Part shown: in pieces, positions 1 through 49,218 of the stretch
How the letters are laid out: every line of letters starts with the position of its first letter
Numbering within the stretch: the stretch's first letter is position 1
Source of the DNA: Candidatus Omnitrophota bacterium
GTDB lineage: Bacteria; Omnitrophota; Gorgyraeia; Gygaellales; Profunditerraquicolaceae
Direction: 5' to 3'
Assembly: GCA_041645145.1 (NCBI GenBank)
Contig: JBAZQO010000001.1
Span: forward strand, 2,327 to 66,326
DNA: 64,000 nucleotides
Translations under genes and position numbers: made by a program
Notes under the pieces: model-generated
Told to the model about the DNA's origin: nothing
What the model saw: only the letters and a program-made list of their open reading frames with translations
The model's database searches: none

Positions 1-1078
1 AAATGCACCTTTATACCTGACCTCTTTGTATATTCGATCATCTTTTTAGCATTAGCCAGGTTCATATCCTTTTTGCAGAGTTTTAAAACCTCGTCATTCG
101 CTGATTCAATCCCATATTTAACCGCGTATAAACCGGCACCGGCCATGGAGCGCAATAATTCTTCATCCATAAGGTCAACCCTTGCCATCGCTGCCCAGGG
201 AACTTTTATCTTTCTCTTCTTTATTTCTTCGCAAATGCCTAAAACATGGGTTTTGTCAATATTAAATGTATCGTCATCAAAATATACGGCTTTAAAATTG
301 AATTTCTCAATGAGCCAAGCCATCTCTTCAACGACATTTGCCGGATTTCTTTTCCTGTATTTATGCTCCCCATATATTACCTGCGGCCAAAGACAAAATG
401 TGCATTGGAAGGGACAACCGCGGCTTGACCACATTTGAACATTAGGGACAGGCAAGCCGGAAAAACCGTCATTATATCTGTAAATATCCGGAGCCTCCCT
501 TTGCGGATAAGGTAGGTCATCCAGGTTGCCTATTGCCGGCCTTGGTTTATTAACCACGATATTTTTATTATTTCTGTAGGCCAGGCCTAAAACGGATTTT
601 AGGTCTCTGGAGTTCTCCAACTCCTCTACTAAGCTTAATAAAGTATATTCGTACTCCCCCATCAAAATGTACTCTATATAATCATATTTACTCAAAATAT
701 CTTTTGCGTAGGTCGTGGCATGCGGGCCGCATAGAACTATTTGGGAATTTGGCCTTTTCTGCCTTATTCTATAAGCAAGCCTCATATCGTTGTAAAAAGA
801 AGGGGTTGAGATTTCTATAACTATGAGACCGGGCTTAGCCGCGTCAATTTCATCCATAACTCTTTGTTCATCCAGACCCCTGGCTATGGCATCAATTAAT
901 TTTACATCTTTATTCTTACTTTTTAAAAGAGAGGCGGCGTAGGCGAGAAAAAAGGGGAAGGGAATGTATTTAATATAATTGTTTTCTTCGGCTTCAGATG
1001 TAAAAGGCCAGCGCGAACCGGCTCTTACTCCCCAGCGATTATTTTTGCGCCAGGGAAGATTTAACAGTATTATGCGCA
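1..1078 (-). CDS. B12-binding (class B) radical SAM protein, partial (C-terminus beyond window start)
   Basis: Translating the minus strand from ATG near 1078 gives MRIILLNLPWRKNNRWGVRAGSRW..., typical of an N-terminal cobalamin-binding domain. Further on is SSRGCPFQCTFC, a CxxxCxxC radical SAM cluster motif. The frame stays open to position 1. The plus-strand track ORFs 73-438 and 246-428 are shadow ORFs inside this gene. Confidence 0.6.
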
Positions 1079-1516
1079 TTATTTCTTAAGATCCAGGTGC
1101 CTTTCAATTTGCTCAAAGAAAACCCTGATCTGTTGAATATTCTGATTCATATCTCTCGAATCACAATTCATCTGATCAAAATTATCTTTTATGGCTCCGA
1201 GCTTCTGAGCTATGGACTGAAGATTTTGAATAAGAGCTTCATCCTGGGCCTCCCCTGATTCTTTAGCCTGCCTGAATGAATTCTGGATATCCGCTTTTAT
1301 ATCAAATGTCATCTGCCCGATATTAGCAAACATTTTTATTAAAGCTGCCAAGAGCAAGCTGCCCATTAAAATCAAAAAACCATAAATAAATGCATTAATA
1401 TCCTTGAATTTGAATATCATCCATAAACTTCCGGCAGCAACACCGCAAATTGCGATGAAATAAGAAAAAAACAGCAAGATTATCGTAATCGGCATCTTGT
1501 TGGCAATCTTTATCAT
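1079..1516 (-). CDS. hypothetical small membrane protein with C-terminal coiled coil
   Basis: 145 aa. Two hydrophobic helices (ITIILLFFSYFIAICGVAAGSLW; FIYGFLILMGSLLLAALI) are followed by a charged, Q-rich helical tail. It is tightly packed between rSAM and GT2 genes on the same strand. Confidence 0.35.
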   Translation of the reverse strand: MIKIANKMPITIILLFFSYFIAICGVAAGSLWMIFKFKDINAFIYGFLILMGSLLLAALIKMFANIGQMTFDIKADIQNSFRQAKESGEAQDEALIQNLQSIAQKLGAIKDNFDQMNCDSRDMNQNIQQIRVFFEQIERHLDLKK

Positions 1517-1526
1517 CTAGTCCTCC

Positions 1527-2840
1527 TTAAGTTACAGTCATTGCCTGATCGGTTTCCCTGGCTGAGTTTTCGATTAATTTGCTTATACCGGAGAAGCGGC
1601 TTGCCAGGCTTTCTATACAAGATTTAAAATTGAGCAATAAAACCTCCAAGAACCCGCTATTGAGATTAACCTGCTGTTTTTTGATTAGCCCGCTCCAATC
1701 CTGGTGCAGTTGGGAGAGATTAAAGAATCTGTCCAATAGCCGGTCATCCCGTATTTTATAAACGGAGAAAAGTAAATGCCTGTGCAACGTTTTATTAAAC
1801 TCCCTATCACTGAATTTCATCCTCATAAAAATAGATAGGATCAGCCCCAAAGCCAAAAAATTCTGCGGAAAGGTATCTTCCTTTTGAATCAGGCTGGAAA
1901 GGTTTCTTTTTGAGCAATCAAAATGATAAAAAAAGGTTAAGTCCAGCAAAGAAAGCCAAAACGAGACCTTGGAATGCATAGCTATATTAAACTGACCCTG
2001 GCTACCGGGAAAATTAAAATAATCAAAATCCCTTAAAGAATGATGCAGGGCTATCAAAAAATCCAAATAAATTAATTTATATCTTTCATTATTCAGGTCT
2101 TCTTCTAAAAAACGGTTAGCCAATCCAATATTATCCTTGATCTTGAAAGCAAATCTTTCCGGATTTTTATAAAACCCTTCTTCCACATAAAAAGCAAAAT
2201 GCCATCTCCAGAAATTATTCAACAGTGAGAATAAATCATCTTCCCTTAAATGCCCTACGGCTGCTTGCGGCTCATAAACTAAATTATATCCGGTTTTCCT
2301 AAGACGCCTGGAAATATCCACATCTTCAAAGTTATTTCTATAGTTATCGTCGTAAAATCCTGCTGAGATCAGCGCCGCTTTGCGGAATAAAGTATTCGAA
2401 CCGAACAAAAAAGGAGGGTTGGTTTTCCGGCGCTCTCCCCAATGTTGCTGCATATGGACAGAGCGCCAAATGTCAAAGATACTAGAGGCCCCGGTTTCCA
2501 CAACTCTTCCCCCTGCTCCCGCCACATTTGACAGATTAATTCTTCCAACCAAATACTTAAGCCAATCTTTATCCGGCTTGCAATCGCTGTCTAAGGAAGC
2601 GATAAATTCGGCATCGGTATTTTTAATAGCGGTATTTCTTGCCGCTGCTAACCCCATGTTTTTAGCATGCTTAATGATCTTTACCGGATATTTCCCGGCA
2701 ATTGCAGCAGTCATATCGGTTGAGCCGTCATCAATAACCAGTATCTCATCCGCGGGCATACTCTGGTGCAACGCCCCCTCCAAACAAGCCCCCAGAGTCT
2801 TTTCTGAATTGAAGCAAGGAATACAGAGGGAGATTTTCAT
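1527..2840 (-). CDS. glycosyltransferase family 2 with long C-terminal extension
   Basis: N-terminus MKISLCIPCFNSEKTLGACLEGALHQS...ILVIDDGSTDMT is a GT2 (GT-A fold) signature including the DDG motif. Its ATG overlaps the stop of the upstream rSAM gene (2837-2840). Confidence 0.7.
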   Translation of the reverse strand: MKISLCIPCFNSEKTLGACLEGALHQSMPADEILVIDDGSTDMTAAIAGKYPVKIIKHAKNMGLAAARNTAIKNTDAEFIASLDSDCKPDKDWLKYLVGRINLSNVAGAGGRVVETGASSIFDIWRSVHMQQHWGERRKTNPPFLFGSNTLFRKAALISAGFYDDNYRNNFEDVDISRRLRKTGYNLVYEPQAAVGHLREDDLFSLLNNFWRWHFAFYVEEGFYKNPERFAFKIKDNIGLANRFLEEDLNNERYKLIYLDFLIALHHSLRDFDYFNFPGSQGQFNIAMHSKVSFWLSLLDLTFFYHFDCSKRNLSSLIQKEDTFPQNFLALGLILSIFMRMKFSDREFNKTLHRHLLFSVYKIRDDRLLDRFFNLSQLHQDWSGLIKKQQVNLNSGFLEVLLLNFKSCIESLASRFSGISKLIENSARETDQAMTVT

Positions 2841-4069
2841 AGCGAATGGATCTCTTCCCTTAATTTTCTTTTTAGCCGGCTGATCTCCGAAAGGATGATC
2901 TCTTTGTCTTCCCCGCCGCTTTCCCTTATGCGCCGGAATTTGTTAAAAATACCGGGTAGCCTCCTTTTGAGGAGGTTCGTTACCGAACCCTTGTAAGAAG
3001 AATAGAACCTGTACCTTAATTTCATTTTTATTACCTGGCTCTTTAAAAACTGCAAGGCCTTATTAGTCAGCTTTCGGTAACTGGCGATCCTTTTTACCTT
3101 TTTAGCCTTATCCAATATGTACGCTTTTGAGAATCGGCTGCCGAAAACTTCATCATAACAGCTCATCAGGCACCCGCTGCATCCGTTATTGATAATAGAA
3201 TTGATCAACTTCCTTCTTTTTTCAGACAACCATAATTCATACAGGCTTTCTTCCCTTATATTTCCAATCAGCTTATTATGCGAAGCTTCGATCCAACAAG
3301 GAAATATATCTCCGTTTGAATTAATGGGGCATGAATACCGAAGCGCGCCGCAATTATCCGGATGGAATTTCTTACCGGTTAAATATGCGGGTATTTTAAA
3401 TAAATAGTTTGCTGGATTAGTAGAAATTTTGCGTTCTTGAGAAATATCGATAAATCTGTGGATTATGTCCTCTATCTTCGGAATCTCCCGCTTATCTATT
3501 AAGAATTCACCCGCGCGTGCAGAATCCTTTAAAAAGATTGCATTAAAAGGCTGTAATCTTACGGTGGTAGCTCCGTACTCTCCAGCTATCTCTAAAACGT
3601 AAAGCAAGTCTTCATAATTATACCTTGATACAGTTGAAGCAACAGTAGTCTCTATTTTATATTTCCTGAGGTTGGCCAGGGCAGAGGCCGCTTTATCAAA
3701 ACTGCCGGGGCCCCTTAAGTAATCGTGCGTCCCCTTGGTTCCTTCTATAGAAATATTCACCACATTGGCCCCGGACGCGCTAAGCCTGGAGGCAACCTGC
3801 TCATCGATTAAACACCCGTTCGAAGTAACGCATGCGTTTAAATTATTCTTCTTTGCAAAGAAAATAAGTTCAAAAATATCCTCTCTTAATAGCGGCTCTC
3901 CTCCGCTAAAAACTACAGTCTGCGCTCCTAATCTAGAGGAGTCATTAATGACTTTTTTCCATTGATCAGTAGATAATTCCTCAATTTTTCCGCAAGGAAT
4001 ATCGCACATCCTGCATCGCAAATTACATCTATTGGTGATAGAAAATATGACTTCCTTTAGGTTAAGCAT
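2837..4069 (-). CDS. radical SAM / SPASM-domain protein (paralog 1)
   Basis: CNLRCRMC (CxxxCxxC) near the N-terminus; GGEPLLREDIFELI SAM-binding glycine-rich motif. The C-terminal Cys-rich region (CGALRYSCPINSNGDIFPC...GCSGCLMSC) is consistent with a SPASM or twitch auxiliary Fe-S domain. Confidence 0.75.
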   Translation of the reverse strand: MLNLKEVIFSITNRCNLRCRMCDIPCGKIEELSTDQWKKVINDSSRLGAQTVVFSGGEPLLREDIFELIFFAKKNNLNACVTSNGCLIDEQVASRLSASGANVVNISIEGTKGTHDYLRGPGSFDKAASALANLRKYKIETTVASTVSRYNYEDLLYVLEIAGEYGATTVRLQPFNAIFLKDSARAGEFLIDKREIPKIEDIIHRFIDISQERKISTNPANYLFKIPAYLTGKKFHPDNCGALRYSCPINSNGDIFPCWIEASHNKLIGNIREESLYELWLSEKRRKLINSIINNGCSGCLMSCYDEVFGSRFSKAYILDKAKKVKRIASYRKLTNKALQFLKSQVIKMKLRYRFYSSYKGSVTNLLKRRLPGIFNKFRRIRESGGEDKEIILSEISRLKRKLREEIHSL

Positions 4070-5205
4070 TCTTTCAGCAATTCTTCGTAATCTGTTAATT
4101 TGAATAATGCGGTAGATAATGATTCCTTTTTGCTTTTTCCATCAATATTATCTTTTTTCAGATCATAAATAAACGTATCAATAATGTTTGTCAATGAATC
4201 TGCCTTGGGATTGGCCCAGCAAGTTTGCAGGCAGGGTTTTTGACAATTCTTCATTGTTCTTCTGGCCTGATCAGCCTCCCTGGTTTTTAAACATTCCCCT
4301 AAACTCAAACCTTGGATATTTCCAAAGGCCGAGCCACAACTACGAACATTGCCGTCAGGGCCAACATTTACAAAAACAAACGGATTACATTTCCACTCTC
4401 TTTTGGTCAGTTCGCCCTTAAAATGCTTAACCCACATATACGGATCGTGAAGAAAAGCTACCAAACCATGATGTTTTTTATAATTAACTATTTTGTCAAT
4501 TTGCTGCTTTAATAACTCAATATCATTATCTTTAAGCCAAAAACGGGCTTTGGGCGAGGTATTCTGCATATCATCCTGATTAACAATAACCGGATGATAA
4601 ACTAAACACTCTGCGCCGGCTTCTTTAACAAGAAGTATGATATCAAAAAGTTCACCGACATTCTCCCTCATGATTGTAGCCCAAACTGATATTTGGGGGC
4701 CGGTCCCCAACTTACTCTTACTTTCGGCTAAATTATTAATAGCGGCTATGGCCTTATTAAAAGCCCCTTTTTGTCTTATGGCATCATGGGTCGCTTCTTC
4801 AGCTCCATCAAGTGAGATGGCGATATTCTTTAAACCGGATGATATAATCCTATCGGCTAAATCTTTAGTGATTAAAGCCCCGTTAGAAACAGCTTCTATT
4901 TTTAATCCTTTAGCGAATCCATATTCTACGATCTCAAATATATCGTTTCTTAAAAAAGCTTCTCCTCCGGTTATAACAACGGTCAAATCCCATCCCCAGG
5001 CAGCAATTTCATCAAATAGATTTTTCACTGCATCCTTATGCAATTCATAACCCTGCAAAATGTTGACTACCCCGCACATTTGGCAACGATAAGTACATTT
5101 ATGGCTAAGGCTTAAATAAATCCAAAGAGGCTTTGCCAAAGGCCTTTCCAATAACTCCGAGAAATAATACGCTAAGTCCTGCTCGAATCTTTTAATATAA
5201 CTCAT
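4057..5205 (-). CDS. radical SAM / SPASM-domain protein (paralog 2)
   Basis: CTYRCQMC; GGEAFLRNDIFEIV. C-terminal CNPFVFVNVGPDGNVRSCG...CQKPCLQTC. Overlaps its neighbour gene by 13 nt. Confidence 0.75.
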   Translation of the reverse strand: MSYIKRFEQDLAYYFSELLERPLAKPLWIYLSLSHKCTYRCQMCGVVNILQGYELHKDAVKNLFDEIAAWGWDLTVVITGGEAFLRNDIFEIVEYGFAKGLKIEAVSNGALITKDLADRIISSGLKNIAISLDGAEEATHDAIRQKGAFNKAIAAINNLAESKSKLGTGPQISVWATIMRENVGELFDIILLVKEAGAECLVYHPVIVNQDDMQNTSPKARFWLKDNDIELLKQQIDKIVNYKKHHGLVAFLHDPYMWVKHFKGELTKREWKCNPFVFVNVGPDGNVRSCGSAFGNIQGLSLGECLKTREADQARRTMKNCQKPCLQTCWANPKADSLTNIIDTFIYDLKKDNIDGKSKKESLSTALFKLTDYEELLKECLT

Positions 5206-5222
5206 AAGATAACTTTTTAAAA

Positions 5223-6512
5223 TTATGCCGCCAGTTTATAGTTTTTTAATACTTCTTTTTTAAGTATATTCAATTTATAAACCTCTAATCTTTTCTGATT
5301 AAAATTACCCAAGAAATTGGGCTTTACGCGCTTTAACAACTCATTGATACAATAATCTATCCTGGATATTATTCGTTCACGGGCATTAGCATTATCCAAG
5401 CATCCTTCTATTCCGGTAAGAAAATGTTTCACCTGCCCTGAAATATCCATGGGAAAATATACACAATCTTGAAGGCAATGAGCTTTGCATTTATTCACAG
5501 TATCTCTAATCTTTTGTGCTTGCAGCGAAAACCAAATCTGTCTTAAATTTTCTTTTTTAAAATCGCCATAGAGCCCCTTACAACTCCATAATTTACCATC
5601 GCACGTTATAACTATCCGCTTAATCCCCTCATAACATTTAAAACGCCTCCCAGGCTTTTTGCCCCTGAAATAACCAGGGATGGACTTCAATATGGCAGGG
5701 TCTGTGTATATGAGAATGTCCTTGGTTTCTTCTTTAATGTTGACTAGCTTACATATATTTTCCTCTAAAAGTGGCATCTCTTCCACCGATGGCCATAATG
5801 AATTTTTCTTACGTTCATACATGCTAACATTGCTCATCAAAACAGGCTGAAACACAACGGTATTGCATTTTTTGCTTTTGGCAAATTCAACGATCTTCAG
5901 CATATCGTTAATATTTTTATTCATGATGGTAAAATTTATGCCGATGGACGGACTGGTTACCTTCATTTTTTCTTTGTAATAATTCAATTTATCGATTGCA
6001 TCAACGGACTTAGCGAAAGAGCCTTCACCCCTTATCGCGTCATTTACTCCGGAAATACCGTCTAATGAAATAGTAACGTGGTTTAACCCCGAACCGATTA
6101 AACTTTGCGCCGCTTCATCATTGCATAATGCTCCGTTTGTAATAATATCCACCCAGGGAATACCGCTCTCCCTGGAAAATCTTATAAGCTCCGTAAGATC
6201 TCCGCGCAGCAGCGGCTCGCCTCCAGAGAAAATAAGATGTTTCACGCCTAAATCTTTTATTTGTAATATAATTTTCTTTATCTCGTCAGTATTCAACTCA
6301 TCTTCCTGCCTACCCGGAGATTTAGGTATATCGCACATAACACAGCGTAAACAACATCTATTGGTTAACGAGAAATAAACATGTTCAGGTGGCACCAGAG
6401 GATAAGAAACTATCCGGCTGGCATAGAATCCTATCATATCCTCGACTTTTATCAGTTCTCTTTCTAAGTACTTATCCATTACTGCCCTTGCCGGTAGATA
6501 TCCCAAATACAT
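5223..6512 (-). CDS. radical SAM / SPASM-domain protein (paralog 3)
   Basis: CCLRCVMC; GGEPLLRGDLTELI. C-terminal CYEGIKRIVITCDGKLWSC...CKAHCLQDC. The true start is probably an internal Met (M12 or M26), because the first 41 nt overlap the upstream gene. Confidence 0.75.
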   Translation of the reverse strand: MYLGYLPARAVMDKYLERELIKVEDMIGFYASRIVSYPLVPPEHVYFSLTNRCCLRCVMCDIPKSPGRQEDELNTDEIKKIILQIKDLGVKHLIFSGGEPLLRGDLTELIRFSRESGIPWVDIITNGALCNDEAAQSLIGSGLNHVTISLDGISGVNDAIRGEGSFAKSVDAIDKLNYYKEKMKVTSPSIGINFTIMNKNINDMLKIVEFAKSKKCNTVVFQPVLMSNVSMYERKKNSLWPSVEEMPLLEENICKLVNIKEETKDILIYTDPAILKSIPGYFRGKKPGRRFKCYEGIKRIVITCDGKLWSCKGLYGDFKKENLRQIWFSLQAQKIRDTVNKCKAHCLQDCVYFPMDISGQVKHFLTGIEGCLDNANARERIISRIDYCINELLKRVKPNFLGNFNQKRLEVYKLNILKKEVLKNYKLAA

Positions 6513-7527
6513 TCCTTAAGCTGGAAGATGATTCCCTGGAGTAACAGGATTGTAGACATAACTTTTCGCATTTTTTTGAATGCCTCCTCAATTCATGGGC
6601 CTCTTTTGATCTCCAGGCCCCTTTTAACGACATCATGTTCAAATTTCCGCATATCCCGTGGCAGGTATAAACAAGCGGTTCGTTCTTAGAAAAACATATG
6701 AATACAGTCTTAAGCCCTCCGAAACAAACCCAATCCGGTTTCTTAAGTGTGCCCTGATAATATTTAATTAATAATTCCGGGCGTGGTTCTTTTAACACAA
6801 CAATATGTTTCCATGCGGTTTTTTCTATTTTTTCAATTTGATCTCTTAATAACGGTATCTTCTCTGCGGCCACCCAGTTTTGCGGAATCTTTCTTTCCAC
6901 GAAATTGGCATTATCGCTGATCAGCGGCTGAAAGTTAATCACATCGACGTTTAGGTCATCGGCTAATTGCGCGATATCATGAAGCTGGGAAACATTTTCA
7001 TCCATAACCGTGACAGCGATACCCAATGAGAAATTCCTGCCTGCGGCCTTCTTCTTGCCAAGCAATTTAATGCCTTCAACGGTTTTAGCGAAAGTATGCT
7101 TTCCTCTGTAATAATCATTCGTATTTTCCAGGCCATCGAGCGAGAAATGGATATGGTCTAAGTTTGATCCAGCTATCCGCTCTGACATATCAGCGTCTAT
7201 AAGCACGCCGTTAGTAGTAATAATATTTCTCAATCCCTTGGCATGAGAATAATCGCATATACTAAACAGGTCTTTCCTTAAAAAAGGCTCCCCCCCTGTT
7301 AAAAGCAGCTCTTTTACCCCATAAGAAGCGGTTTCATCAACTACCCTGTATATCTGTTCGGTAGACAATTCTTCATCCGGCGGCAACAAATCAACTATAC
7401 TGCACATGCGGCACCTTAAGTTACACCTGTAACTAAGGGAGATTTGTACCACCTCCGGATGGATTAAAGGATAATTCATCTTCCGGGATAACCAATAAAA
7501 CAGGTTATTCATCATTTCTCTCCGCAA
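6472..7527 (-). CDS. radical SAM / SPASM-domain protein (paralog 4)
   Basis: CNLRCRMC; GGEPFLRKDLFSIC. C-terminal CFGGLKTVFICF...CHGICG...CEKLCLQSC. The N-terminus (FYWLSRKMNYPLIHPEVVQISLSYRC) closely parallels paralog 5. Confidence 0.75.
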   Translation of the reverse strand: MRREMMNNLFYWLSRKMNYPLIHPEVVQISLSYRCNLRCRMCSIVDLLPPDEELSTEQIYRVVDETASYGVKELLLTGGEPFLRKDLFSICDYSHAKGLRNIITTNGVLIDADMSERIAGSNLDHIHFSLDGLENTNDYYRGKHTFAKTVEGIKLLGKKKAAGRNFSLGIAVTVMDENVSQLHDIAQLADDLNVDVINFQPLISDNANFVERKIPQNWVAAEKIPLLRDQIEKIEKTAWKHIVVLKEPRPELLIKYYQGTLKKPDWVCFGGLKTVFICFSKNEPLVYTCHGICGNLNMMSLKGAWRSKEAHELRRHSKKCEKLCLQSCYSRESSSSLRNVFGISTGKGSNG

Positions 7528-7540
7528 AAACTACCCCTAA

Positions 7541-9517
7541 CTATTTCGTAGCCCAAAGAGTAATGGCCGGGCCATGTTCATGCTTCTCTTTCCCGATTAT
7601 CTCAATTGAATTAAAGCCCGCATCTCTGATTGCTGCAAGCAAATCTTCTTCAAATAACCAAAACACCCTTTTCTCCAAACCACACACAATATCATTGATA
7701 TTCTCATCAAAATATTTTCCGCGGTAAATGCGATTATTCCACCTGGTTCCTTCAGCCGGAGCGATAGGATAACTATCATTGGCGTAATGCGACCAGACAA
7801 AAAGGCTGTTGCAGAGCTGGCCAATTCGATAAAGCAGCGCAACTGGGTTATTTAGATGATATAGAACTCCTGATGCCAGGCATAAATCAAAATGACCGGA
7901 AAAAGAGCTTAACACTTCATTCGCGTCACCAAATAAAAATTCGCATTTATCTAATTTGAACGCATTCTTAACGATCAGCGCTTTCAGAAAGTTTTCTTTT
8001 CTGCCTTCGATAGAGATAACCTTTTTAGCTCCGTTCCCCTGCAGTAGAGATGAATGCATCCCTTCCAAACAACCCATATCCAGAATAGTTAACCCTTTCA
8101 GGTTTATTCTTTTTCTTATCTCATTGATCTTTGATTCAAAAGGAACGCCTGGTTTAGGCTGTCCCGAAACAGAAATCTCTTCAAACGAAAAATTACCCAC
8201 CCAATTTTGAAAAATCCCAAACCCATATAATTGGGATATTGTTAACGACCCCCTAAAAGAGTTGAGTATATTCTCTAATTTCTTTAACGTATTTACAATA
8301 TCGCTATCCGGCTCTTCAGTCTTTGAATTAAGGACCCCTCTCATTGATTGCAAAAAAAAGTATTCTTCTTTGCGAATGGTAATTTGGGCGTCCCGAGGCA
8401 AGTTTCTTATTTCTATCTCTAATTGTTCATGAATTAAACTAATGTCGTCCGATTGTGAGCGTTCTGAACAAAATTGGGTGCAGCTTTTTTTACAATTCTT
8501 GATCATTTCCCTGATTTTACCGGTATCCTCTGCATACCATAATTGTTTCAGGCTGTCTTTTTTGATATTCCCGAATGACTGTAAGCATACAAAACTCATA
8601 TCTCCCTGCGGATTTACAAAAATCCTGTTGAATCCCGCAAAACAGGTATTCTCAAATCCCTCTCCCCGGAAATGTTTGATGGTTTTCTCCGGCATGATAT
8701 CTATATGCATGAAACCTGAAAATTGTCTCTTTTTGGCAATCAAAATATCGAAAATTTGCTGCAGCCTGGGGATATCCTTTTCTTCAATCCAGAGTTCATT
8801 ATTTTCTAAAGGTGCGGGTAAATCCCCGTTATTCACCAAGGGCTGGAAGGCTATATAACAACAACCTATTTTTCTTGCCAAATCAGCCAAGGCAGGCAGT
8901 TCCTCCATATTCTTCTTCATGATCACGCTTACCATTGCAATATCCAAAACCCTATCTTCGCTATTACGGCCGCGGCCATATTTTTTTTTATAGTAATTAA
9001 GATACTCAATGGAACGCATCGCTTTCTCAAATATTCCTTCACCCCGGAAAAAATTATGCGTTTTGGGGCTTGCCCCGTCGATAGAAAAACTTATATTCCT
9101 TAATCTTGACCTTACTATTTTTTCAGCAGTCTCTTCGTTGATAAAACCACCATTAGTATTAATTGTAGTGACGATCCCAGGGCGAGCAGCGTAATCGATT
9201 AACTCAAATATGTCTTTTCGCAGGAGCGCTTCGCCTCCGGTAAAATAAATCGTCTTTATACCCATAGATAGGGCTTCATCAATAAACCTTTTAATGTCTT
9301 CTGCACCTGCTTCTTCCTGAAACCGCTGCTTCCATACATTACACATCTTACACTGAAGCTGACAACGGGACGTAACCATAAGCTGCAGCATATCAGGCTC
9401 AACCATTGCTTTATTTAATAAGCGGGAAAAATTAAACAAATAATCCCTTTTGTGCTTATTAAAAATTTCTTCCATCCTATCCACGACCATGATACTCCCC
9501 CATTCTGGAAATAACAA
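7541..9517 (-). CDS. fusion protein: N-terminal radical SAM/SPASM domain + C-terminal class I SAM-dependent methyltransferase domain
   Basis: N-terminal half: CQLQCKMC, GGEALLRKDIFELI, CFAGFNRIFVNPQGDMSFVC...CKKSCTQFC. C-terminal ~200 aa: LTILDMGCLEGMHSSLL resembles the Rossmann-fold methyltransferase motif I (hhDhGCGxG-like), followed by hydrophobic and acidic motifs. Confidence 0.65.
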   Translation of the reverse strand: MLFPEWGSIMVVDRMEEIFNKHKRDYLFNFSRLLNKAMVEPDMLQLMVTSRCQLQCKMCNVWKQRFQEEAGAEDIKRFIDEALSMGIKTIYFTGGEALLRKDIFELIDYAARPGIVTTINTNGGFINEETAEKIVRSRLRNISFSIDGASPKTHNFFRGEGIFEKAMRSIEYLNYYKKKYGRGRNSEDRVLDIAMVSVIMKKNMEELPALADLARKIGCCYIAFQPLVNNGDLPAPLENNELWIEEKDIPRLQQIFDILIAKKRQFSGFMHIDIMPEKTIKHFRGEGFENTCFAGFNRIFVNPQGDMSFVCLQSFGNIKKDSLKQLWYAEDTGKIREMIKNCKKSCTQFCSERSQSDDISLIHEQLEIEIRNLPRDAQITIRKEEYFFLQSMRGVLNSKTEEPDSDIVNTLKKLENILNSFRGSLTISQLYGFGIFQNWVGNFSFEEISVSGQPKPGVPFESKINEIRKRINLKGLTILDMGCLEGMHSSLLQGNGAKKVISIEGRKENFLKALIVKNAFKLDKCEFLFGDANEVLSSFSGHFDLCLASGVLYHLNNPVALLYRIGQLCNSLFVWSHYANDSYPIAPAEGTRWNNRIYRGKYFDENINDIVCGLEKRVFWLFEEDLLAAIRDAGFNSIEIIGKEKHEHGPAITLWATK

Positions 9518-9547
9518 TATTTCACATTAGCTTATAGGAAAAGAATA

Positions 9548-10912
9548 TTAAGAAATACCGCCCTTATAAACTCCTAAGATTTTAGCCAACCCGAATAACA
9601 TTCCTCTTCTTATTTCCCGGATCCTTGGGCTGTTCTTCCCCCTGATATACCATTCTGAGTTATTATTATAGCGGATATTCAAAGAACCCTGCTCTCTCCA
9701 TAACCGCGATTTATGCGGGATATAACAGCTGCTGACACTTACGAACTCATCAATATATTCCCGGTTATTAAATAAAAAGATCATAGTCTCTATAACGTCG
9801 CTCCATCTTTCCGCAGGATAGCCTACCATCCATAATGTATTAACCCTGATTCCGGAATCGTGAGTTCTCCGTAAAGCTTGAGAAATATGTTTTTTTAGCG
9901 GCTTGCCCATATGCGCCAGGACTCTGGCGGCCCCGCTTTCAATGCCATATGTAAAATAAATCCCGCCTGCTTTCTTTATTTTGCACAGAAATTCCTGCGA
10001 CATTTCTATCCGCGCCCGGGCCATACCTCCCCATTCAAAATTATTCTTACTGGCGATTATTTTATCCGTTAATTGCCCCAATTTCTCTAAATCTCCGTTA
10101 ATCATTAAATCGTTGCACTTAAAACGCCTGCGGCCAAAGAGCTCGCCATGCTTTATCATTTCTTCAAGGATGTTATCGGCGCTCCTCATGCGATACCTTC
10201 CCCACATAGGCGCGTCCGTACAGAATGCGCAGCTATAATTACATCCCCGGCTGAAAATAATCGGGATTTCTAATTTATTAGTATAGCGCTCGAGATCAAA
10301 TAGTTTTAGTGCAGGAGACAGGATGCTATCAACATCCAAAGGATTCGCATCCCAACCATTATCTTTGAAACCGGTGCCCGTATTAACCAATGTGCCTTCT
10401 AAGGCTAAATCCATTATGGATTCGCCACGCTCAATTATTTTCGCTATTCTACTAATGATCTTCTCGCCTTCCCCCCGGACATAAACATCAACATTGTTAT
10501 TCAACTCTCCGGATTCTATAATCTCCGTGCACAAGGGACCGCCAAATACAATACAGGCATCCTTCGCTTTCTTCTTTAATACATCCGCCAATAAATTAGC
10601 CAATATTCTGGAATGGCTGTTAACGCTTAAACCTATAATTTTTGGATCACACTCCAAAACGGTTTCTGTCCATTTTTCTACCAAATCCGAAACATTAAAA
10701 TTTCTATTTATTTTTTCTAAAGAAGCCCAGTGATCGGAATTTTCCCAGTCCCACAAAAATTGTTTATCTTTACTCTCTACGTATAGTTGAGAATTGAAAC
10801 AAAAAACAGAAACTTTATATCCGTCATTCATTAACTGGCTGGCTATATATGCTATGCCCAAAGGTGGCATATCAACTCCGTAGAGAGGAGGAAAGACCAA
10901 GGCTACATTCAT
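9548..10912 (-). CDS. B12-binding (class B) radical SAM protein
   Basis: The N-terminus MNVALVFPPLYGVDMPPLGIAYIASQL...GYKVSVF is typical of a cobalamin-binding domain. Further on is IIFSRGCNYSCAFCTD (CxxxCxxC). Its stop overlaps the next gene's start (ATGA). Confidence 0.75.
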   Translation of the reverse strand: MNVALVFPPLYGVDMPPLGIAYIASQLMNDGYKVSVFCFNSQLYVESKDKQFLWDWENSDHWASLEKINRNFNVSDLVEKWTETVLECDPKIIGLSVNSHSRILANLLADVLKKKAKDACIVFGGPLCTEIIESGELNNNVDVYVRGEGEKIISRIAKIIERGESIMDLALEGTLVNTGTGFKDNGWDANPLDVDSILSPALKLFDLERYTNKLEIPIIFSRGCNYSCAFCTDAPMWGRYRMRSADNILEEMIKHGELFGRRRFKCNDLMINGDLEKLGQLTDKIIASKNNFEWGGMARARIEMSQEFLCKIKKAGGIYFTYGIESGAARVLAHMGKPLKKHISQALRRTHDSGIRVNTLWMVGYPAERWSDVIETMIFLFNNREYIDEFVSVSSCYIPHKSRLWREQGSLNIRYNNNSEWYIRGKNSPRIREIRRGMLFGLAKILGVYKGGIS

Positions 10913-11970
10913 TTTTGCTTTCTAAAGTTATTTTTTAAGATATCCCTTAAGCTGGCTGATTCCTGCCGGGCGTGACAATCCTGAAGGCAGTAATTACGGC
11001 ATTTTTTGATTTTAACCCTTCTTTTCTTAGCCTTAAGAGAAAACCAATTATTTTTTACCGAAGGCTCTCTTCTTATATTCCCGATTTCTTCGCCGCACAT
11101 TTGGATTGAGCCGCCGGGGACTACTACAAACCTGCGATAACCTGCAAAACAAACCCAATCACCCTCACACAGATCCCTCCTGAAATATTTCTTTATTAAA
11201 TAAAAACTGGGATAGTTCAGGCCGTATCCTTTCTGTTGAAGAAGATCGATTTTATCTATCATCTCATCCAGCTTTTTTAAACGGTCACCAGTAATCCACA
11301 AATTTCCTTCACTGCTCCCAGAGTCCTGCTTATACAACTTAACATTGTTCAGGACAACAGAAGTTATATACAAGGCGTCAACCGACAAACCTTTGGCAAG
11401 ATGGAAATATTCCTCTAATTCATCAAGGTTATAATTAGATAGGGTCAATATCAATACCTTGATTAATTTCTTTTCCTCCGGGGAATTATTTAAATGCCTT
11501 ATTCCCTGCATTATTTTATCGTAAGCGCCGGGTTGGGCTCTAATTTTATCATGCGTTTTGCCTCTGGCGCCATCAAGGGATATCGTAATTACATCAAGCT
11601 TAGACTGAATTAACCTTCTTGCCACCTCTTCAGTTATCAGCGTGCCATTCGTGGTTAGAATAACGGTTAAGCCCAGCGATTTTGCATATTCTATAACATC
11701 AAAACATATCTCGCACAAAAGAGGCTCTCCTCCGCATAGATTGACTTCCTTAACCCCCCATTCGCGGCACTGATTCAGAATATCCTTAATTTCTTTAAGG
11801 GTTAATTCCTCGCTTATGTTTGCAGCCTTCCATACGCTACACATCTCGCATCTAAGATTGCATCTACTGGTAAGGGATATCTGCAGGGTATCGGGTGGAA
11901 CAAGAGGGAAATTAATCTTTCGCGACAGCCAAAATCCGAAATCCCTTTTTATTTTATCAATTTTATTCAT
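10909..11970 (-). CDS. radical SAM / SPASM-domain protein (paralog 5)
   Basis: CNLRCEMC; CGGEPLLCEICFDVI. C-terminal CFAGYRRFVVVPGGSIQMCGEEIGNI...CRNYCLQDC. Confidence 0.75.
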   Translation of the reverse strand: MNKIDKIKRDFGFWLSRKINFPLVPPDTLQISLTSRCNLRCEMCSVWKAANISEELTLKEIKDILNQCREWGVKEVNLCGGEPLLCEICFDVIEYAKSLGLTVILTTNGTLITEEVARRLIQSKLDVITISLDGARGKTHDKIRAQPGAYDKIMQGIRHLNNSPEEKKLIKVLILTLSNYNLDELEEYFHLAKGLSVDALYITSVVLNNVKLYKQDSGSSEGNLWITGDRLKKLDEMIDKIDLLQQKGYGLNYPSFYLIKKYFRRDLCEGDWVCFAGYRRFVVVPGGSIQMCGEEIGNIRREPSVKNNWFSLKAKKRRVKIKKCRNYCLQDCHARQESASLRDILKNNFRKQK

Positions 11971-11991
11971 AATCCAGCGGTAATGTTATTT

Positions 11992-13914
11992 TCAATCGCA
12001 AAAACAAGGCAAAAGACAGGGATTTTTGCACTCCCTGACCCTTTTTCTTGCCTGCACACTCTTTTCAGATTCGAAAATCTTTCTTAAGGAGTCTTTCCGG
12101 ATATTACCATAACTTTCAAAACAAGTAGCTACATCGCCGTTGTTAGCAACCAGAACCGTCTTAGCTGCATAAAGGCACTTTACATCGCCTTGGGATAAAT
12201 ACCCCCGGAAATATTTTTTTACAAGCCTGAGGTTATTCTCTGAATTACGCACAAGGAGATAATTATCTTTTTTAAATTCAAGCAATTTATCTATTACCGC
12301 ATCTAATACTGCCAGCCTCTCCTGAGGTATCCAGTATTTAGTTCCCCCCCTCCTCTCTTTCATTATTAGATTATTGGGAAGCAGGGGTTGAAACTGGATA
12401 GAATTAACATTGAGTGATTTTAAAAAAACAGCTAAGTCCAAAAGCTCTTCCAGATTCTCATTAAGAATTATAGAGATAGTGTTAAAATTTATACCTCGAC
12501 CCCTTTTCTTTAATCGGGAAAGTTTTTCCAGGGCAGCGGATGTCTTCTGGAAAGCTCCTTCGACCCCACGTATTTCATCATGAATTCCAGGGTTCAACGC
12601 GTCAAGTGAAATACTCAAAGAGAGGCTCCCCGAATTAAAATATGGCAGTAACTTATTAATAAAATATTCATTCAATATAATGCCATTAGTCAGCACGCCT
12701 ATATGGTAATTTTTTTCTTTTACAAAATCTAATATTTCAAAAATGTCCTCTCTTATAAAGGGTTCTCCGCCGGATAAAACAAATTCCCTGACTCCCCAGC
12801 CAATAGCTTCATTTATAAGATTTTTTATTTCATCCGAGGTGTACTCCCCGATTGGCTTATCTTTTCTTATTTCACAGATATTACATTTAAGATTACACCT
12901 GTGCGTAATATCCAAAATAATAACTTCCGGCTTGGGAGGATTGCTGACGGTGTTATTTTGGCCATTATTTAAGTCATTCTCCGGTATTTTTGCTGCTCTT
13001 ATATGCTCTACCGTATTACCGATTAAATAATTCACTTTATGCAACGCAAAATAAAGGAAAATTTGGAACTTTTCATATAAAGTAATGTGGGTAAGCGACC
13101 GGATTAAACGCCTGCCCAAAAGATAAGAAAAGCGCGGGATCTTGAAAAAATTTATGATTGACCCAAAAATAAAATAAGTGTTATTTTGAGTCTTTATTTC
13201 CTTTAATAGGGGGTGGTCTTTATGCACATGTTGCACCAAGTAATTCCCCCGGCCGTACATATACGCCTGTTTTAAAAATGAAATGATGTTTGTATGACAA
13301 TCGTGGAATATTTTTATATCTTGCTTATAGCTAAGCCTGCCGCCATTTTTAAAAATCCTCCAGAATAAATCTAGATCTTCACCTGCGGGAAAAGGGAACA
13401 GTTCATTGAAACCATTGACAAGATAATCTCGCTTAAAAGACACATTGCAAGTCGGGAAAAATATAGTTTCGGGCTTTCCCTTTATCTCGGTTGCTATTGC
13501 TCCGTCACTTAAAAATTGGCTAACCTTCGCCTTAATATTATGGCTGGCGACCTCAGTAGTACCCCCAATTGCTGCGATATGTTTCTCTAATCTATGCGCC
13601 TGAACCATCTGCCTGACCCAATCTTTATTCAAGATACAATCGCTATCCGTAAAACCGATTATTTCTGCAGATGCATATTTTATGCCTAAATTTCGCGCAA
13701 CAGCAGGGCCTTTGTGCTGTTGAATAAAATACCTCAAGTTAGGATTTATTTTAGAAAGCGCCTCAAGCATATCTTTAGTTCCATCATTAGAACCATCATC
13801 TATTACAATTATCTCAAAGGCATCTTTTGGATAAATCTGCGCGAATAAGGAATCGAGGCATTGTCTGAGTTTGAGCTTTCGATTATAAGTAGGAACTACT
13901 ATAGTAAAATCCAT
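11992..13914 (-). CDS. fusion protein: N-terminal GT2 glycosyltransferase + C-terminal radical SAM/SPASM domain
   Basis: N-terminus MDFTIVVPTYNRKLKLRQCLDSLFAQ...IIVIDDGSNDGT (GT2). C-terminal half: ILDITHRCNLKCNICEIR (CxxxCxxC), GGEPFIREDIFEIL, CLYAAKTVLVANNGDVATCFESYGNI...CKNPCLLPCFCD. Confidence 0.7.
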   Translation of the reverse strand: MDFTIVVPTYNRKLKLRQCLDSLFAQIYPKDAFEIIVIDDGSNDGTKDMLEALSKINPNLRYFIQQHKGPAVARNLGIKYASAEIIGFTDSDCILNKDWVRQMVQAHRLEKHIAAIGGTTEVASHNIKAKVSQFLSDGAIATEIKGKPETIFFPTCNVSFKRDYLVNGFNELFPFPAGEDLDLFWRIFKNGGRLSYKQDIKIFHDCHTNIISFLKQAYMYGRGNYLVQHVHKDHPLLKEIKTQNNTYFIFGSIINFFKIPRFSYLLGRRLIRSLTHITLYEKFQIFLYFALHKVNYLIGNTVEHIRAAKIPENDLNNGQNNTVSNPPKPEVIILDITHRCNLKCNICEIRKDKPIGEYTSDEIKNLINEAIGWGVREFVLSGGEPFIREDIFEILDFVKEKNYHIGVLTNGIILNEYFINKLLPYFNSGSLSLSISLDALNPGIHDEIRGVEGAFQKTSAALEKLSRLKKRGRGINFNTISIILNENLEELLDLAVFLKSLNVNSIQFQPLLPNNLIMKERRGGTKYWIPQERLAVLDAVIDKLLEFKKDNYLLVRNSENNLRLVKKYFRGYLSQGDVKCLYAAKTVLVANNGDVATCFESYGNIRKDSLRKIFESEKSVQARKRVRECKNPCLLPCFCD

Positions 13915-16629
13915 TTATTTATCTTGTATAGTTAGAAGACCGGAAAAATAATGATATTTGCCGGGGGAAAAATTTGTTTGCGCGGAAGAAGAGTATTGTA
14001 AAATCCTGCCGCGATGATATCTATCGGAATTTATTATTTTAAGATGCCATTGTGGATTTGATTTTTTGAGAGACAAAGAAACCCGCGGTAAATTATATAT
14101 AGGATTCTCTCTTAAGCTAATAATTCGATCGTCTTTTTTACCACTCCATAAACAATCCCAGTTATCATCAACATCATCTGCGAATTCGGGAAAGAAACCC
14201 TCTTCCTTGTCAACCAGCCATTGAGAAAATCTCTCAGAAAACATAATATTGGACTGAAGACAATCTACCTCAATTTCTTTTTCTACTTCCAGCCTGACCA
14301 TCCATTCAAATAACCCATCATCTTTAATCGCTATCTCCCATTCCTGAGACAAGGGCAGCTGGAGCCATTTGCCAACAGCTTTAATTTGCTGGCTATCTTT
14401 ATAGATAATTTTCCAAGAAGCAGAAGAAAAAGAGTCATGCCAACGCCCCTTTGAACGCATTGAGGTATAGAGGGCGATATTCTTGGTAAGCTCCTCACCG
14501 TTTTTATAAAACCTCCCGCTTCCTTTATTAAATACAAATCTGATATTTTTATCTTCGATGATATTATTAAGCTTATCAATGTCCGTTGTTTTGTTTCTAT
14601 CCAAAACAAACCGCGTCCTAAAGCATTCATATTTACCCGGGGAAAACATAACGTTTATTTCCGGCTCAACCTTTTCCAAATGTAAGAGCCTTGCTTTACT
14701 ATAATGATCGGAGTTAAAAACTTTTATAAAATTGCCTAATTTTTCGGAGAAAAACAAAGAGACCTGGGGGAGACTTCCCGTAGGATCCCTTAATCCCACT
14801 TCTCCCGTAGAAACACACCTTTGCAATAAATCTACCTCCGTATCATTAAATGTGTCGCTGAATTTCTCAGAAACAAACTTACTAAAGAAAAGCTTAAAAT
14901 CTGCGGGGAAAAAACACCTTAGGCGCTGATGTTCAATAGCGATATCCCGTTTGGCTTCAATATCAACATCCCAGGTAAAAGAAAGACCATTGCATATATT
15001 GATGCGCCATGTTTGAGAAATTCCAAGATCATCCCAGTTACCTCGGGCAATCAATATATTATCTGACTCTTTTTCTAGCGTCCAGCGAGCCAAATCTGAA
15101 GTAAACCATCTCTGCTTTGTAAAAAATGCGGAATACATATGGCCGGCCTTAGTTAAAGGGATGTTATCAAAGAATACACTTAGCCTGCCATTATCAAATA
15201 TCAATTTTAACTTTTTGTTTGAAATAATAAACTCGTTTTGTATCTTAGAGACATAATCATGAATATCGGCAATATTAACCTTTATCGCGCCTGAAAAACA
15301 GATAAACCTACTGGGCTGGTTAATTGGGTTGCTGGAGATAGGTATCGTTTTATACTGCAGTATACGTCCGGGATTCAAATAATCAGAATTTAATACGGTC
15401 CCCTGACCAAGATATCTTAAGCGGGATTGTTCAAAAAACAAAGCTGGAAGCTTACCGGAAGCAGATTCCTGCGGATATACGCCAATGCAGACACTGGGTC
15501 CATTCTTGAAAAATATGGATTTCCAGTTCTTATCCTCTTCTTTTATAACAGGAAATTCTCCTTGTTCCGAGTCAACAAACCACTGCTTATAGCCGTCAAC
15601 GAGCATAACGTTAGCGTATATCTGGTGTAATTGTATATCTGTCTCCGTTTCAATTTCTATGTCCCACTTAATCTCATAATTATCAGATACCTCTATCCTC
15701 CAAATCTGAGACAGTGCAAGATGATAAAACTTACCCGTTGCTACCAACTTACCATTTGATTCCTCAACATCCCATTCTGCCTGAGTAGAACTATACCATA
15801 CGCCGGATATTCCAAATGTCGTATAAACTCCGGGAAAAGACGTGATTAATTTACCTTCCCAATTCAACAATAGGCGGCCGTTATTGAATACAAGGCTAAG
15901 CTGTTTTCTCGCAACAATGGCTATTCCCTTCGGGCTGCCGACTGCCTGCGAATAAAAAGACGCTACCTTGGCCGTTTCTCCATCTTTAATCATCATTCCA
16001 TTTTTCAAAAATATCGTTCTTTTGCACAGTTTCTGCAGCATTGCCATATCGTGGGTAACGATGATAACTGTTTTGCCGCTTTCTCCCACTTTAAATATTT
16101 CTTTAATACATTTTTTTTGGAAATACTCATCTCCCACGGCAAGCGTATCATCTATCAGGAAAATTTCCGGCTCCATATGAATGGCTATGGCAAAAGCCAA
16201 CCGCACAAACATGCCTTGCGAATAACACTTTACCGGGGCGTCTATAAACTTGCCGATCTCGGCAAAGTCGATAATCTGCTGATACCTTTTATTAATTTCA
16301 TCGCGGCTTAAGCCAAATAATTCAGACTGTAAAAAAATATTCTCTCTTCCCGTAAGCTCCGCTTGAAAGCCCGCGCCCAATTCCAGGAGCCCCGATACGC
16401 TGCCGGAGATATTTGCCTGGCCGCGGTCAGGATTTAACATTCCGGCAATTAATTTTAAAATGGTCGACTTACCCGAACCATTCTCGCCGATAATCCCCAG
16501 CGACTCACCCCTCTCCATAGAAAAACTGATTCCCCGCAAGGCCCAGAAATTTTGCCATGAGGCCTTACCCTCAATAATAAACTTGATGCGATACATCTCC
16601 CATACATCATTAAATTTAATTATAGGCAT
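13915..16629 (-). CDS. wzt: Wzt/KpsT-type ABC transporter ATP-binding protein with ~670-aa C-terminal extension of three tandem repeat modules
   Basis: N-terminal ~235 aa: Walker A GENGSGKST, signature-like YSQGM, Walker B IFLIDD, H-loop VTHD. This is the polysaccharide-exporter ATPase family. The remaining ~670 aa form three ~220-aa repeats, each with an L.L.FNNGRL...W..L..SQ.WRI...W.V.IE...DI core and an NSD(Y/H/R)...RILQY...SPGKY(E/H)(C/Y)F tail. Confidence 0.75.
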   Translation of the reverse strand: MPIIKFNDVWEMYRIKFIIEGKASWQNFWALRGISFSMERGESLGIIGENGSGKSTILKLIAGMLNPDRGQANISGSVSGLLELGAGFQAELTGRENIFLQSELFGLSRDEINKRYQQIIDFAEIGKFIDAPVKCYSQGMFVRLAFAIAIHMEPEIFLIDDTLAVGDEYFQKKCIKEIFKVGESGKTVIIVTHDMAMLQKLCKRTIFLKNGMMIKDGETAKVASFYSQAVGSPKGIAIVARKQLSLVFNNGRLLLNWEGKLITSFPGVYTTFGISGVWYSSTQAEWDVEESNGKLVATGKFYHLALSQIWRIEVSDNYEIKWDIEIETETDIQLHQIYANVMLVDGYKQWFVDSEQGEFPVIKEEDKNWKSIFFKNGPSVCIGVYPQESASGKLPALFFEQSRLRYLGQGTVLNSDYLNPGRILQYKTIPISSNPINQPSRFICFSGAIKVNIADIHDYVSKIQNEFIISNKKLKLIFDNGRLSVFFDNIPLTKAGHMYSAFFTKQRWFTSDLARWTLEKESDNILIARGNWDDLGISQTWRINICNGLSFTWDVDIEAKRDIAIEHQRLRCFFPADFKLFFSKFVSEKFSDTFNDTEVDLLQRCVSTGEVGLRDPTGSLPQVSLFFSEKLGNFIKVFNSDHYSKARLLHLEKVEPEINVMFSPGKYECFRTRFVLDRNKTTDIDKLNNIIEDKNIRFVFNKGSGRFYKNGEELTKNIALYTSMRSKGRWHDSFSSASWKIIYKDSQQIKAVGKWLQLPLSQEWEIAIKDDGLFEWMVRLEVEKEIEVDCLQSNIMFSERFSQWLVDKEEGFFPEFADDVDDNWDCLWSGKKDDRIISLRENPIYNLPRVSLSLKKSNPQWHLKIINSDRYHRGRILQYSSSAQTNFSPGKYHYFSGLLTIQDK

Positions 16630-49150: not shown

Positions 49151-49218
49151 AAAGGGACGCTTAATTGGAGACCTTCTTATTGGCTGATAAACCTTTGGGA
49201 AGGTTAGCGTCCCTTTTA
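49151..49218 (-). terminator. long-range stem (12 bp) enclosing an inner hairpin, immediately 3' of the giant ORF stop
   Basis: aaaagggacgct ...45 nt... agcgtccctttt. The inner part has ccttc..gaagg pairing. On the minus strand it is followed by UUAUUUG. Confidence 0.45.

Follow-up and report, generated by a model that had tools for sequence, protein, structure and literature searches.

The radical-SAM genes of the locus

This analysis concerns a stretch of 64,000 nucleotides (the window) from a Candidatus Omnitrophota bacterium (GCA_041645145.1, contig JBAZQO010000001.1, positions 2,327 to 66,326 of the forward strand). Within it, seven minus-strand genes, R1 to R7 (2837-13914), encode homologous radical S-adenosylmethionine (radical-SAM) domains and lie side by side in a polysaccharide gene cluster. 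All seven belong to Radical_SAM (PF04055), scoring 69-94 bits where the cut-off is 29.5. A single minus-strand operon of abutting or overlapping genes occupies the left 22 kb of the window, with intergenic gaps of 30 nt or less in the radical-SAM block. An earlier note on this DNA gave the range of the family as 2837-11970, which leaves out R7, the carrier of one of the motifs that it quoted; the end should be 13914. The seven genes, their domains and their C-terminal Cys motifs are:

2837-4069, minus strand: R1, radical-SAM protein, 410 aa, the outlier paralogue (Pfam Radical_SAM 1.1e-24, SPASM 1e-8)
3158-3181, minus strand: CSGCLMSC of R1, a C-x2-C-x3-C
4057-5205, minus strand: R2, radical-SAM protein, 382 aa (orthologues 58-70 % identical)
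4219-4245, minus strand: CQKPCLQTC of R2
5223-6512, minus strand: R3, radical-SAM protein, 429 aa (orthologues 47-85 % identical)
5463-5489, minus strand: CKAHCLQDC of R3
6472-7527, minus strand: R4, radical-SAM protein, 351 aa (AF2 model, pLDDT 93)
6544-6570, minus strand: CEKLCLQSC of R4
7541-9517, minus strand: R5 fused to a methyltransferase, 658 aa
8249-9517, minus strand: R5 radical-SAM domain, aa 1-423 (88.9 % identical to the stand-alone 415-aa orthologue in locus L004)
8468-8494, minus strand: CKKSCTQFC of R5
7541-8245, minus strand: class I SAM methyltransferase domain, aa 425-658, in frame with R5 (Pfam Methyltransf_9/31/23/11)
10909-11970, minus strand: R6, radical-SAM protein, 353 aa, part of a variable block
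10975-11001, minus strand: CRNYCLQDC of R6
11992-13914, minus strand: R7, fusion of a GT2 glycosyltransferase and a radical-SAM domain, 640 aa (Glycos_transf_2 6e-34, Radical_SAM 2e-22, SPASM 2.7e-5)
13015-13914, minus strand: R7 GT2 domain, approximately aa 1-300
11992-12957, minus strand: R7 radical-SAM domain, approximately aa 320-640
12004-12030, minus strand: CKNPCLLPC of R7

The true start of R3 is probably about 12 codons downstream, the gene called in the related locus L015 being 417 aa.

The C-terminal Cys motif and the N-terminal segment

The six Cys strings quoted in the earlier note are each present once, in R2-R7, and occupy the same columns of a MAFFT alignment. A six-frame regular-expression scan of the window for C-x3-C-x3-C found exactly six occurrences, one in each of R2-R7; as these are the only such sites and all lie at aligned positions, the recurrence is not due to chance. 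The signature does not extend to all seven domains, since R1 is without it and has CSGCLMSC. In the proposed consensus, C-x3-C-L-Q-x-C, the three Cys are invariant, but L-Q is found in only four of the six, with T-Q in R5 and L-L in R7.

Conservation was assessed in an alignment of 100 sequences, made up of R4, 94 R4 orthologues and five window paralogues. The invariant columns are C35/C39/C42, G78-G79-E80, a few core residues and five C-terminal Cys (C268, C289, C320, C324 and C328). Two additional Cys, C278 and C293, are conserved in R4 orthologues. The common N-terminal segment described previously is real in R2-R6 but belongs to the enzyme itself rather than being a leader peptide. In the AlphaFold (AF2) model it comprises helix 2-17 plus strand 1, and in the R4-based alignment S14, R15, P20 and P24 within it are at least 90 % conserved. 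R1 is without the N-terminal helix.

Relatedness of the seven domains

The domains are true paralogues, as had been suggested, with 25-35 % identity over approximately 300-340 aa (E 1e-26 to 1e-58) in pairwise BLASTP of all seven. R2-R7 are mutually 27-33 % identical over their full length (139-183 bits), and R4 aligns in full length with R2, R3, R5, R6 and R7 at 144-183 bits. Among 72,556 plasmids, the best relatives of R4 are NirJ (100 bits, confined to the N-terminal 64 %), PqqE (about 78 bits) and, at 91 bits or less, anonymous radical-SAM proteins. In the PDB its best relative is SkfB, which scores 52 bits, rising to 86 bits when the family profile is used, and matches in the N-terminal core only. 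Searching 1.84 billion representatives with R4 gave 45,871 matches at E<=1e-3, of which only 128 were at E<=1e-30. The best 150 of the 45,871 include orthologues of R6 (65 %), R2 (62 %), R3 (49 %), R5 (88 %) and R7 (66 %); C-x3-C-x3-C is present in 88 of these 150 and the exact C-x3-C-L-Q-x-C in 39.

These results bear on whether unrelated radical-SAM/SPASM genes were acquired independently and assembled in one operon. Both their bit scores and the rank of the ortholog groups, all of which fall in the best 150 of 45,871, place R2-R7 closer to one another than to random radical-SAM-SPASM proteins. Their motif occurs nowhere else in the window and is absent from canonical SPASM outgroups: MftC, a GDL-motif maturase and two anonymous Firmicutes proteins all have the canonical CX2CX5CX3C and trailing Cys. 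The position of R1 is marginal, however, as it scores 117 bits to MftC and 123 bits to an Agathobacter radical-SAM protein, against 97-155 to the window paralogues (97-124 to R2 and R4-R7, and 155 to R3). Three extra paralogues of related loci also fall near a Clostridium protein. Independent acquisition is considered very unlikely, and the comparisons indicate that R2-R7 are a real subfamily, not independently acquired genes.

In the P0144 cluster there is a 36 %-identical member with CRTPCLNFC, which is labelled as a Candidatus Woesearchaeota archaeon. The subfamily may therefore reach into the DPANN archaea, or the label may be a binning error.

Orthologues, synteny and the age of the array

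Eight related loci were compared, L001, L002/L003, L013, L014 and L015 from Logan, JGI, NCBI and ENA assemblies, and L004, L005 and L006 from GTDB genomes. All the named ones are Omnitrophota, save one contig labelled Paceibacterota. A common frame runs through them: Wzt, R7, a variable block, R4, R3, sometimes further genes, R2, R1, a GT2, a small protein and a B12 radical-SAM gene. Each window paralogue has a 1:1 orthologue, 45-89 % identical and in the same order (L001-L006 and L013-L015), and its second-best match is a paralogue at 25-35 %. R1 orthologues are 45-69 % identical. For R6, orthologues (74-80 % identity) are confined, among the loci compared, to the nearest relatives: L004, L006 and L015, the last by gene order and ortholog grouping. 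Full-length orthologues of the R7 fusion form more than 110 clusters with 49-95 % identity, and the GT2-radical-SAM fusion is kept in all of them.

An alignment and tree of the domains, which the earlier note had called for, place the motifs in the same columns and recover the ortholog groups. In the tree (neighbour-joining, Kimura distances, 100 bootstraps, named outgroups) these groups have 97-100 % bootstrap support and the nodes between them 10-53 %. Given the 1:1 syntenic orthologues and the strongly supported ortholog clades, the paralogue duplications predate the divergence of the Omnitrophota lineages sampled. Because support at the deep nodes is low, no order of duplication is assigned.

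The proposal that the family expanded locally, by recent tandem duplication and divergence within the operon of this genome, is therefore not borne out. The genes are adjacent, co-oriented and homologous, as that explanation would have it. However, same-position orthologues are far more similar (45-89 %) than paralogues within the window (25-35 %), and the relatives L004 and L006 carry more copies, the lower number here having come about through deletion. Neighbouring genes are also not each other's nearest paralogues in pairwise BLASTP. Recent tandem duplication is thus extremely improbable.

A core set of R7, R4, R3, R2 and R1 is inherited in fixed order, and R5, R6 and further paralogues lie in blocks that are gained and lost. 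There are seven domain copies in the window and in L015, which is 95 % identical to it, nine in L004, about 10 in L001 and about 15 in L013, a double domain of 810 aa among them. In some loci a gene for a GH44-family glycoside hydrolase separates Wzt from the GT2-radical-SAM fusion (L002 1-2137, L014 5957-8125); the window is without this gene.

Deletion and mosaic divergence

Comparison with L004 shows how the R5 fusion arose. R5 aa 9-423 match the stand-alone 415-aa R5 of L004 through its last residue, and aa 425-658 match a separate 237-aa L004 methyltransferase from residue 4 on, with 80.8 % identity in the methyltransferase domain. In L004 this methyltransferase gene is 3.3 kb downstream of R5, with two radical-SAM genes and one other gene between them. 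The fusion came about through a precise in-frame deletion of approximately 3.3 kb, from the R5 stop codon to methyltransferase codon 3. The two radical-SAM genes and the other gene, present in L004 and L006 (compare L004 4714-9986), have been lost by this deletion. The same fusion, at 649 aa, recurs in L015 and L016, two independent assemblies, and so is no artefact of assembly.

Amino-acid identity to L004 varies along the cassette: 89 % for R5, 85 % for R4, 83 % for the B12-binding radical-SAM gene B12a and 80 % for both R3 and R6, then 75 % for R7, 70 % for R2, 69 % for R1 and 67.5 % for the glycosyltransferase gene GT2a. The synonymous divergence (dS) climbs from 0.54 to saturation along the cassette (window 1527-13914). 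This mosaic pattern suggests recombination inside the cassette, the break falling between R3 and R2.

Selection and group-specific residues

Diversifying selection, which the earlier note had proposed to look for, left no gene-wide sign in any of the seven genes. The ratio of non-synonymous to synonymous divergence (dN/dS, gene-wide Nei-Gojobori against L004 and L001 orthologues) is 0.08-0.17, with dS near or beyond saturation in several pairs, and is similar to that of the adjacent GT2 and B12 genes. All seven paralogues are kept by purifying selection. Positions conserved within ortholog groups and differing between them cluster in the C-terminal Cys domain (274, 293, 323, 327, 329 and 330 in R4 numbering), with two more in the barrel (104 and 169). 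The group-specific residues around the Cys motif fit a stable sub-specialisation of the paralogues.

The surrounding glycan cassette

The operon is transcribed in the order GT4, WecA/MraY-family transferase, amine-oxidase-family protein, TPR protein, Wzm, Wzt, R7, R6, B12a, R5, R4, R3, R2, R1, GT2a, a 145-aa protein and B12b. The genes other than R1-R7 are:

21008-22177, minus strand: GT4 glycosyltransferase
20032-21015, minus strand: WecA/MraY-family polyprenyl-phosphate sugar-phosphate transferase (PF00953 at 7e-31, WecA 86 bits)
18738-20039, minus strand: flavin amine-oxidase-family protein (weak HpnE/CrtI match)
17431-18741, minus strand: TPR protein
16631-17422, minus strand: Wzm ABC-2 permease (Pfam PF01061, NCBIfam)
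13915-16629, minus strand: Wzt-like ABC ATPase, 904 aa (PF00005; TagH/Wzt models 156-191 bits, below equivalog cut-offs)
9548-10912, minus strand: B12a, B12-binding radical-SAM protein, 454 aa, of a different class (Pfam B12-binding and Radical_SAM)
1527-2840, minus strand: GT2a, stand-alone GT2 glycosyltransferase, 437 aa, the conserved downstream partner of R1 (Pfam)
1079-1516, minus strand: small membrane/coiled-coil protein, 145 aa, without family match (orthologues 26-60 % identical)
1-1076, minus strand: B12b, N-terminal 359 aa of a second B12-binding radical-SAM protein, cut by the window edge (frame translation)

The set of genes expected of Wzm/Wzt-type glycan assembly is present: a polyprenyl-phosphate sugar-phosphate transferase, a GT4, three GT2 domains (one of them fused to R7), an ABC-2 permease and a Wzt ATPase. 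There are also two B12-radical-SAM genes, which show no significant similarity to R1-R7 and were rejected as members of the paralogue family. GT2a orthologues are 41-68 % identical and occupy the same position in related loci, and the amine-oxidase-family, WecA/MraY-family and GT4 genes are in the same order in L014 and L015. B12b is 60-82 % identical to L001 and L002 genes at the same position; as it runs off the window start, the conserved cassette extends past the window. In relatives, the next gene after B12b is another GT2.

Wzt has a C-terminal extension of 650 aa (residues ~244-904) with no Pfam match, and the known Wzt C-terminal carbohydrate-binding domain was not detected in the 904-aa protein. 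Local alignment of visually chosen segments resolves the extension into three related modules, starting at aa 244, 474 and 696 (z 16-27 against shuffles); self-BLAST at E<=1e-3 found no repeats in the C-terminus. The extension is conserved in L014 at 51 % identity and may be a triple glycan-recognition domain.

Class of radical-SAM enzyme and comparison with known systems

The SPASM domain has seven Cys, arranged as CX9-15GX4C-gap-CX2CX5CX3C-gap-C, and binds two auxiliary clusters; the Twitch domain is a truncated SPASM with a single auxiliary cluster (PMC6231123). The window proteins do not have the seven-Cys arrangement, as the second block has three Cys instead of four and there is no conserved trailing Cys. 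R2-R7 have a hairpin C...C pair followed by C-x3-C-x3-C. Across the seven proteins the C-terminal Cys count is five or six, against seven in SPASM. R1 has the most SPASM-like C-terminus (C240-x6-C247-x10-C258 ... C297-x2-C300-x3-C304), keeping the MftC-like C-x6-C-x10-C but carrying C-x2-C-x3-C. The Pfam SPASM model (PF13186, threshold 21.5) is passed by four of the seven, R1, R3, R5 and R7; R4 scores 20.2, and R2 and R6 have no match. The five invariant C-terminal Cys are compatible with one cluster. R1-R7 are best described as having a reduced SPASM domain, and this reduced domain is probably Twitch-like.

Across 18,950 NCBIfam models, no cut-off is reached by any of R1-R7. The twitch model NF033640 gives 68 bits for R4 and 52 for R5, against a cut-off of 170. 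AhbD, NirJ and NirJ2 (TIGR04545, TIGR04051 and TIGR04055) are the best-scoring curated models for most of the paralogues, mostly over the N-terminal half only. Their scores of 93-141 bits compare with cut-offs of 500-650. The best match overall, R1 to NirJ2, is 141 against 500, and the others are 93-115. There are no tetrapyrrole genes nearby and no haem d1 or alternative-haem genes in the cassette, and these families were rejected. So was MftC (TIGR03962), to which R1 scores 116.9 against a cut-off of 265, there being no MftA, MftB, MftD or MftE genes and no gap for a precursor gene. The GT2s score 121-135 bits to the MftF model, where the cut-off is 280. Sub-threshold matches of this kind should not earn these genes annotation as haem, pyrroloquinoline quinone or mycofactocin maturases.

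The closest solved fold to the R1-R7 family is BlsE, the cytosylglucuronate decarboxylase of the blasticidin S pathway (PDB 7VOB). However, identity to BlsE is 17-18 %, the sequence match is to the N-terminal core only (68 bits for the profile), and the NCBIfam BlsE model gives 55-67 bits against a cut-off of 400. BlsE is also a lone enzyme of a nucleoside antibiotic pathway, whereas R1-R7 are an array in a glycan-export locus. The Twitch-domain enzymes BtrN, MoaA and SkfB are likewise among the closest known systems. The SPASM enzymes anSME, MftC, PqqE, AlbA, SuiB and CteB differ from R2-R7 in having seven Cys rather than two hairpin Cys and C-x3-C-x3-C; the cassette has neither a RiPP recognition element (RRE) nor a peptide substrate gene to go with R2-R7.

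The cassette resembles Wzm/Wzt O-antigen and glycopolymer pathways in its WecA-family transferase, GT4, GT2, Wzm and Wzt with a long C-terminal extension. It differs in its radical-SAM genes, as no characterised pathway of this kind is known, from a literature search and to our knowledge, to have an array of 7-15 of them. Neither this cassette nor any array of radical-SAM genes in a glycan locus came up in the literature search. In an Omnitrophota complete-genome preprint, radical SAM is mentioned solely as a domain in giant proteins.

Peptide and lipid substrates

The enzymes might instead mature a peptide made by the ribosome and modified after translation (a RiPP) or a protein, acting on a peptide or on the membrane protein at 1079-1516, with the product then glycosylated by the GT2s and exported. 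Peptide maturation is the usual role of SPASM enzymes, and there are Pfam SPASM matches here. Sactipeptide, MftC and other peptide maturases are among the best curated-model matches, MftF is the best match of both GT2s, and SkfB, SuiB, ChlB and CteB are close structural neighbours. Yet all of the curated scores are far under their cut-offs, and Pfam finds no PqqD or RRE domain in the ten cassette proteins. Only 10-50 aa lie ahead of CxxxCxxC, and with gaps of 30 nt or less a precursor peptide gene has nowhere to fit. Transport is by a glycan-type Wzm/Wzt system, and the initiating transferase is WecA-like. Membership of the RiPP-maturing class was rejected, and this explanation is unlikely.

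Modification of a lipid (a polyprenol, a hopanoid-like or a membrane-spanning lipid) instead of sugars would account for the weak matches to Tes, HpnH, HpnJ and a ladderane-type B12 radical-SAM protein, for the amine-oxidase-family flavoprotein with its weak HpnE/CrtI match, and for GDGT-MAS being among the structural neighbours. These scores too are far under the cut-offs, however, and the conserved frame is without lipid-synthesis genes. Covalent fusion recurs with GT2 domains, and export is by a polysaccharide-type system. A lipid substrate is rather improbable, though somewhat less so than a peptide.

Other features of the window

Three further genes, all on the minus strand, are recorded here. 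An intein that carries a LAGLIDADG homing-endonuclease domain (Pfam Intein_splicing, LAGLIDADG_3) splits the GyrA gene (59660-63415, 1251 aa). Pfam gives no credible domain for an open reading frame of 2545 aa (49216-56853); very long proteins are reported to be numerous in Omnitrophota (bioRxiv 10.64898/2026.06.07.730766). A 644-aa protein (25578-27512) has weak N-terminal PilZ and weak GH76-like matches, both under Pfam thresholds, and may be a cyclic di-GMP-responsive glycan-related protein.

Proposed function and significance

SPASM/Twitch radical-SAM enzymes are known mainly for the tailoring of peptides, cofactors and small molecules. It is considered fairly likely that R1-R7 are an old subfamily with a reduced SPASM domain, located in a conserved Omnitrophota cassette for a polyprenol-linked surface glycan exported by Wzm/Wzt. 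The context of the locus points to serial radical tailoring of the exported glycan. The CxxxCxxC cluster and SAM of each paralogue would remove a hydrogen atom, each paralogue having its own sugar or position as target, in the growing glycan or in its nucleotide-sugar precursors. An auxiliary cluster held by the conserved C-terminal Cys would serve in electron handling or substrate positioning. Candidate outcomes are oxidation, epimerisation, decarboxylation, deoxygenation and cross-linking. The partners of these enzymes before export through Wzm/Wzt would be the GT2 glycosyltransferases, the methyltransferase fused to R5 and the two B12-radical-SAM enzymes, which are probably C-methylases. 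The suggestion in the earlier note, that the same radical chemistry is applied to different sugars or positions, would fit this context. In distant relatives, GT2-rSAM-rSAM, rSAM-rSAM, triple rSAM and B12rSAM-GT2-rSAM polypeptides recur (rSAM, radical-SAM domain).

Several points weigh against this account of R1-R7. R1 stands roughly as near to MftC as to the majority of its window paralogues, and in the neighbour-joining tree three extra cassette paralogues (L004_x351, L001_x370 and L001_x384) group loosely with a Clostridium radical-SAM protein. With only 10-53 % bootstrap for the deep branching of the paralogue groups, a single clade of all seven, as against every other radical-SAM family, is not proven. 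The substrate could be the polymer, a lipid-linked intermediate or a nucleotide sugar.

What is new is a subfamily with its own motif, without a curated model or characterised member, the SPASM-Twitch architecture itself being known. Also new are its arrangement in arrays that vary from 7 to about 15 genes and the placing of these arrays in a locus for glycan export that is conserved across Omnitrophota. A broader proposal, made only tentatively as it falls somewhat short of probable, is that of a phylum-wide assembly line for Omnitrophota glycans. An array of reduced-SPASM enzymes, expandable from 7 to about 15 and with some members fused to GT2 domains or to each other, would carry out serial radical C-H functionalisation on a polyprenol-linked polysaccharide before export by Wzm/Wzt; the triple-module Wzt may read the product, and gain and loss of genes would bring about glycan diversity. 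If true, this would be a form of polysaccharide tailoring without characterised precedent.

Omnitrophota are a widespread and almost uncultured phylum of very small, partly host-dependent bacteria. If the enzymes act on a glycan, the surface polymer of these bacteria would have an unusual density of radical-installed modifications, and the family would offer new C-H chemistry on carbohydrates. Differences in copy number and the in-frame deletion in the window suggest a route to variation of the surface glycan.

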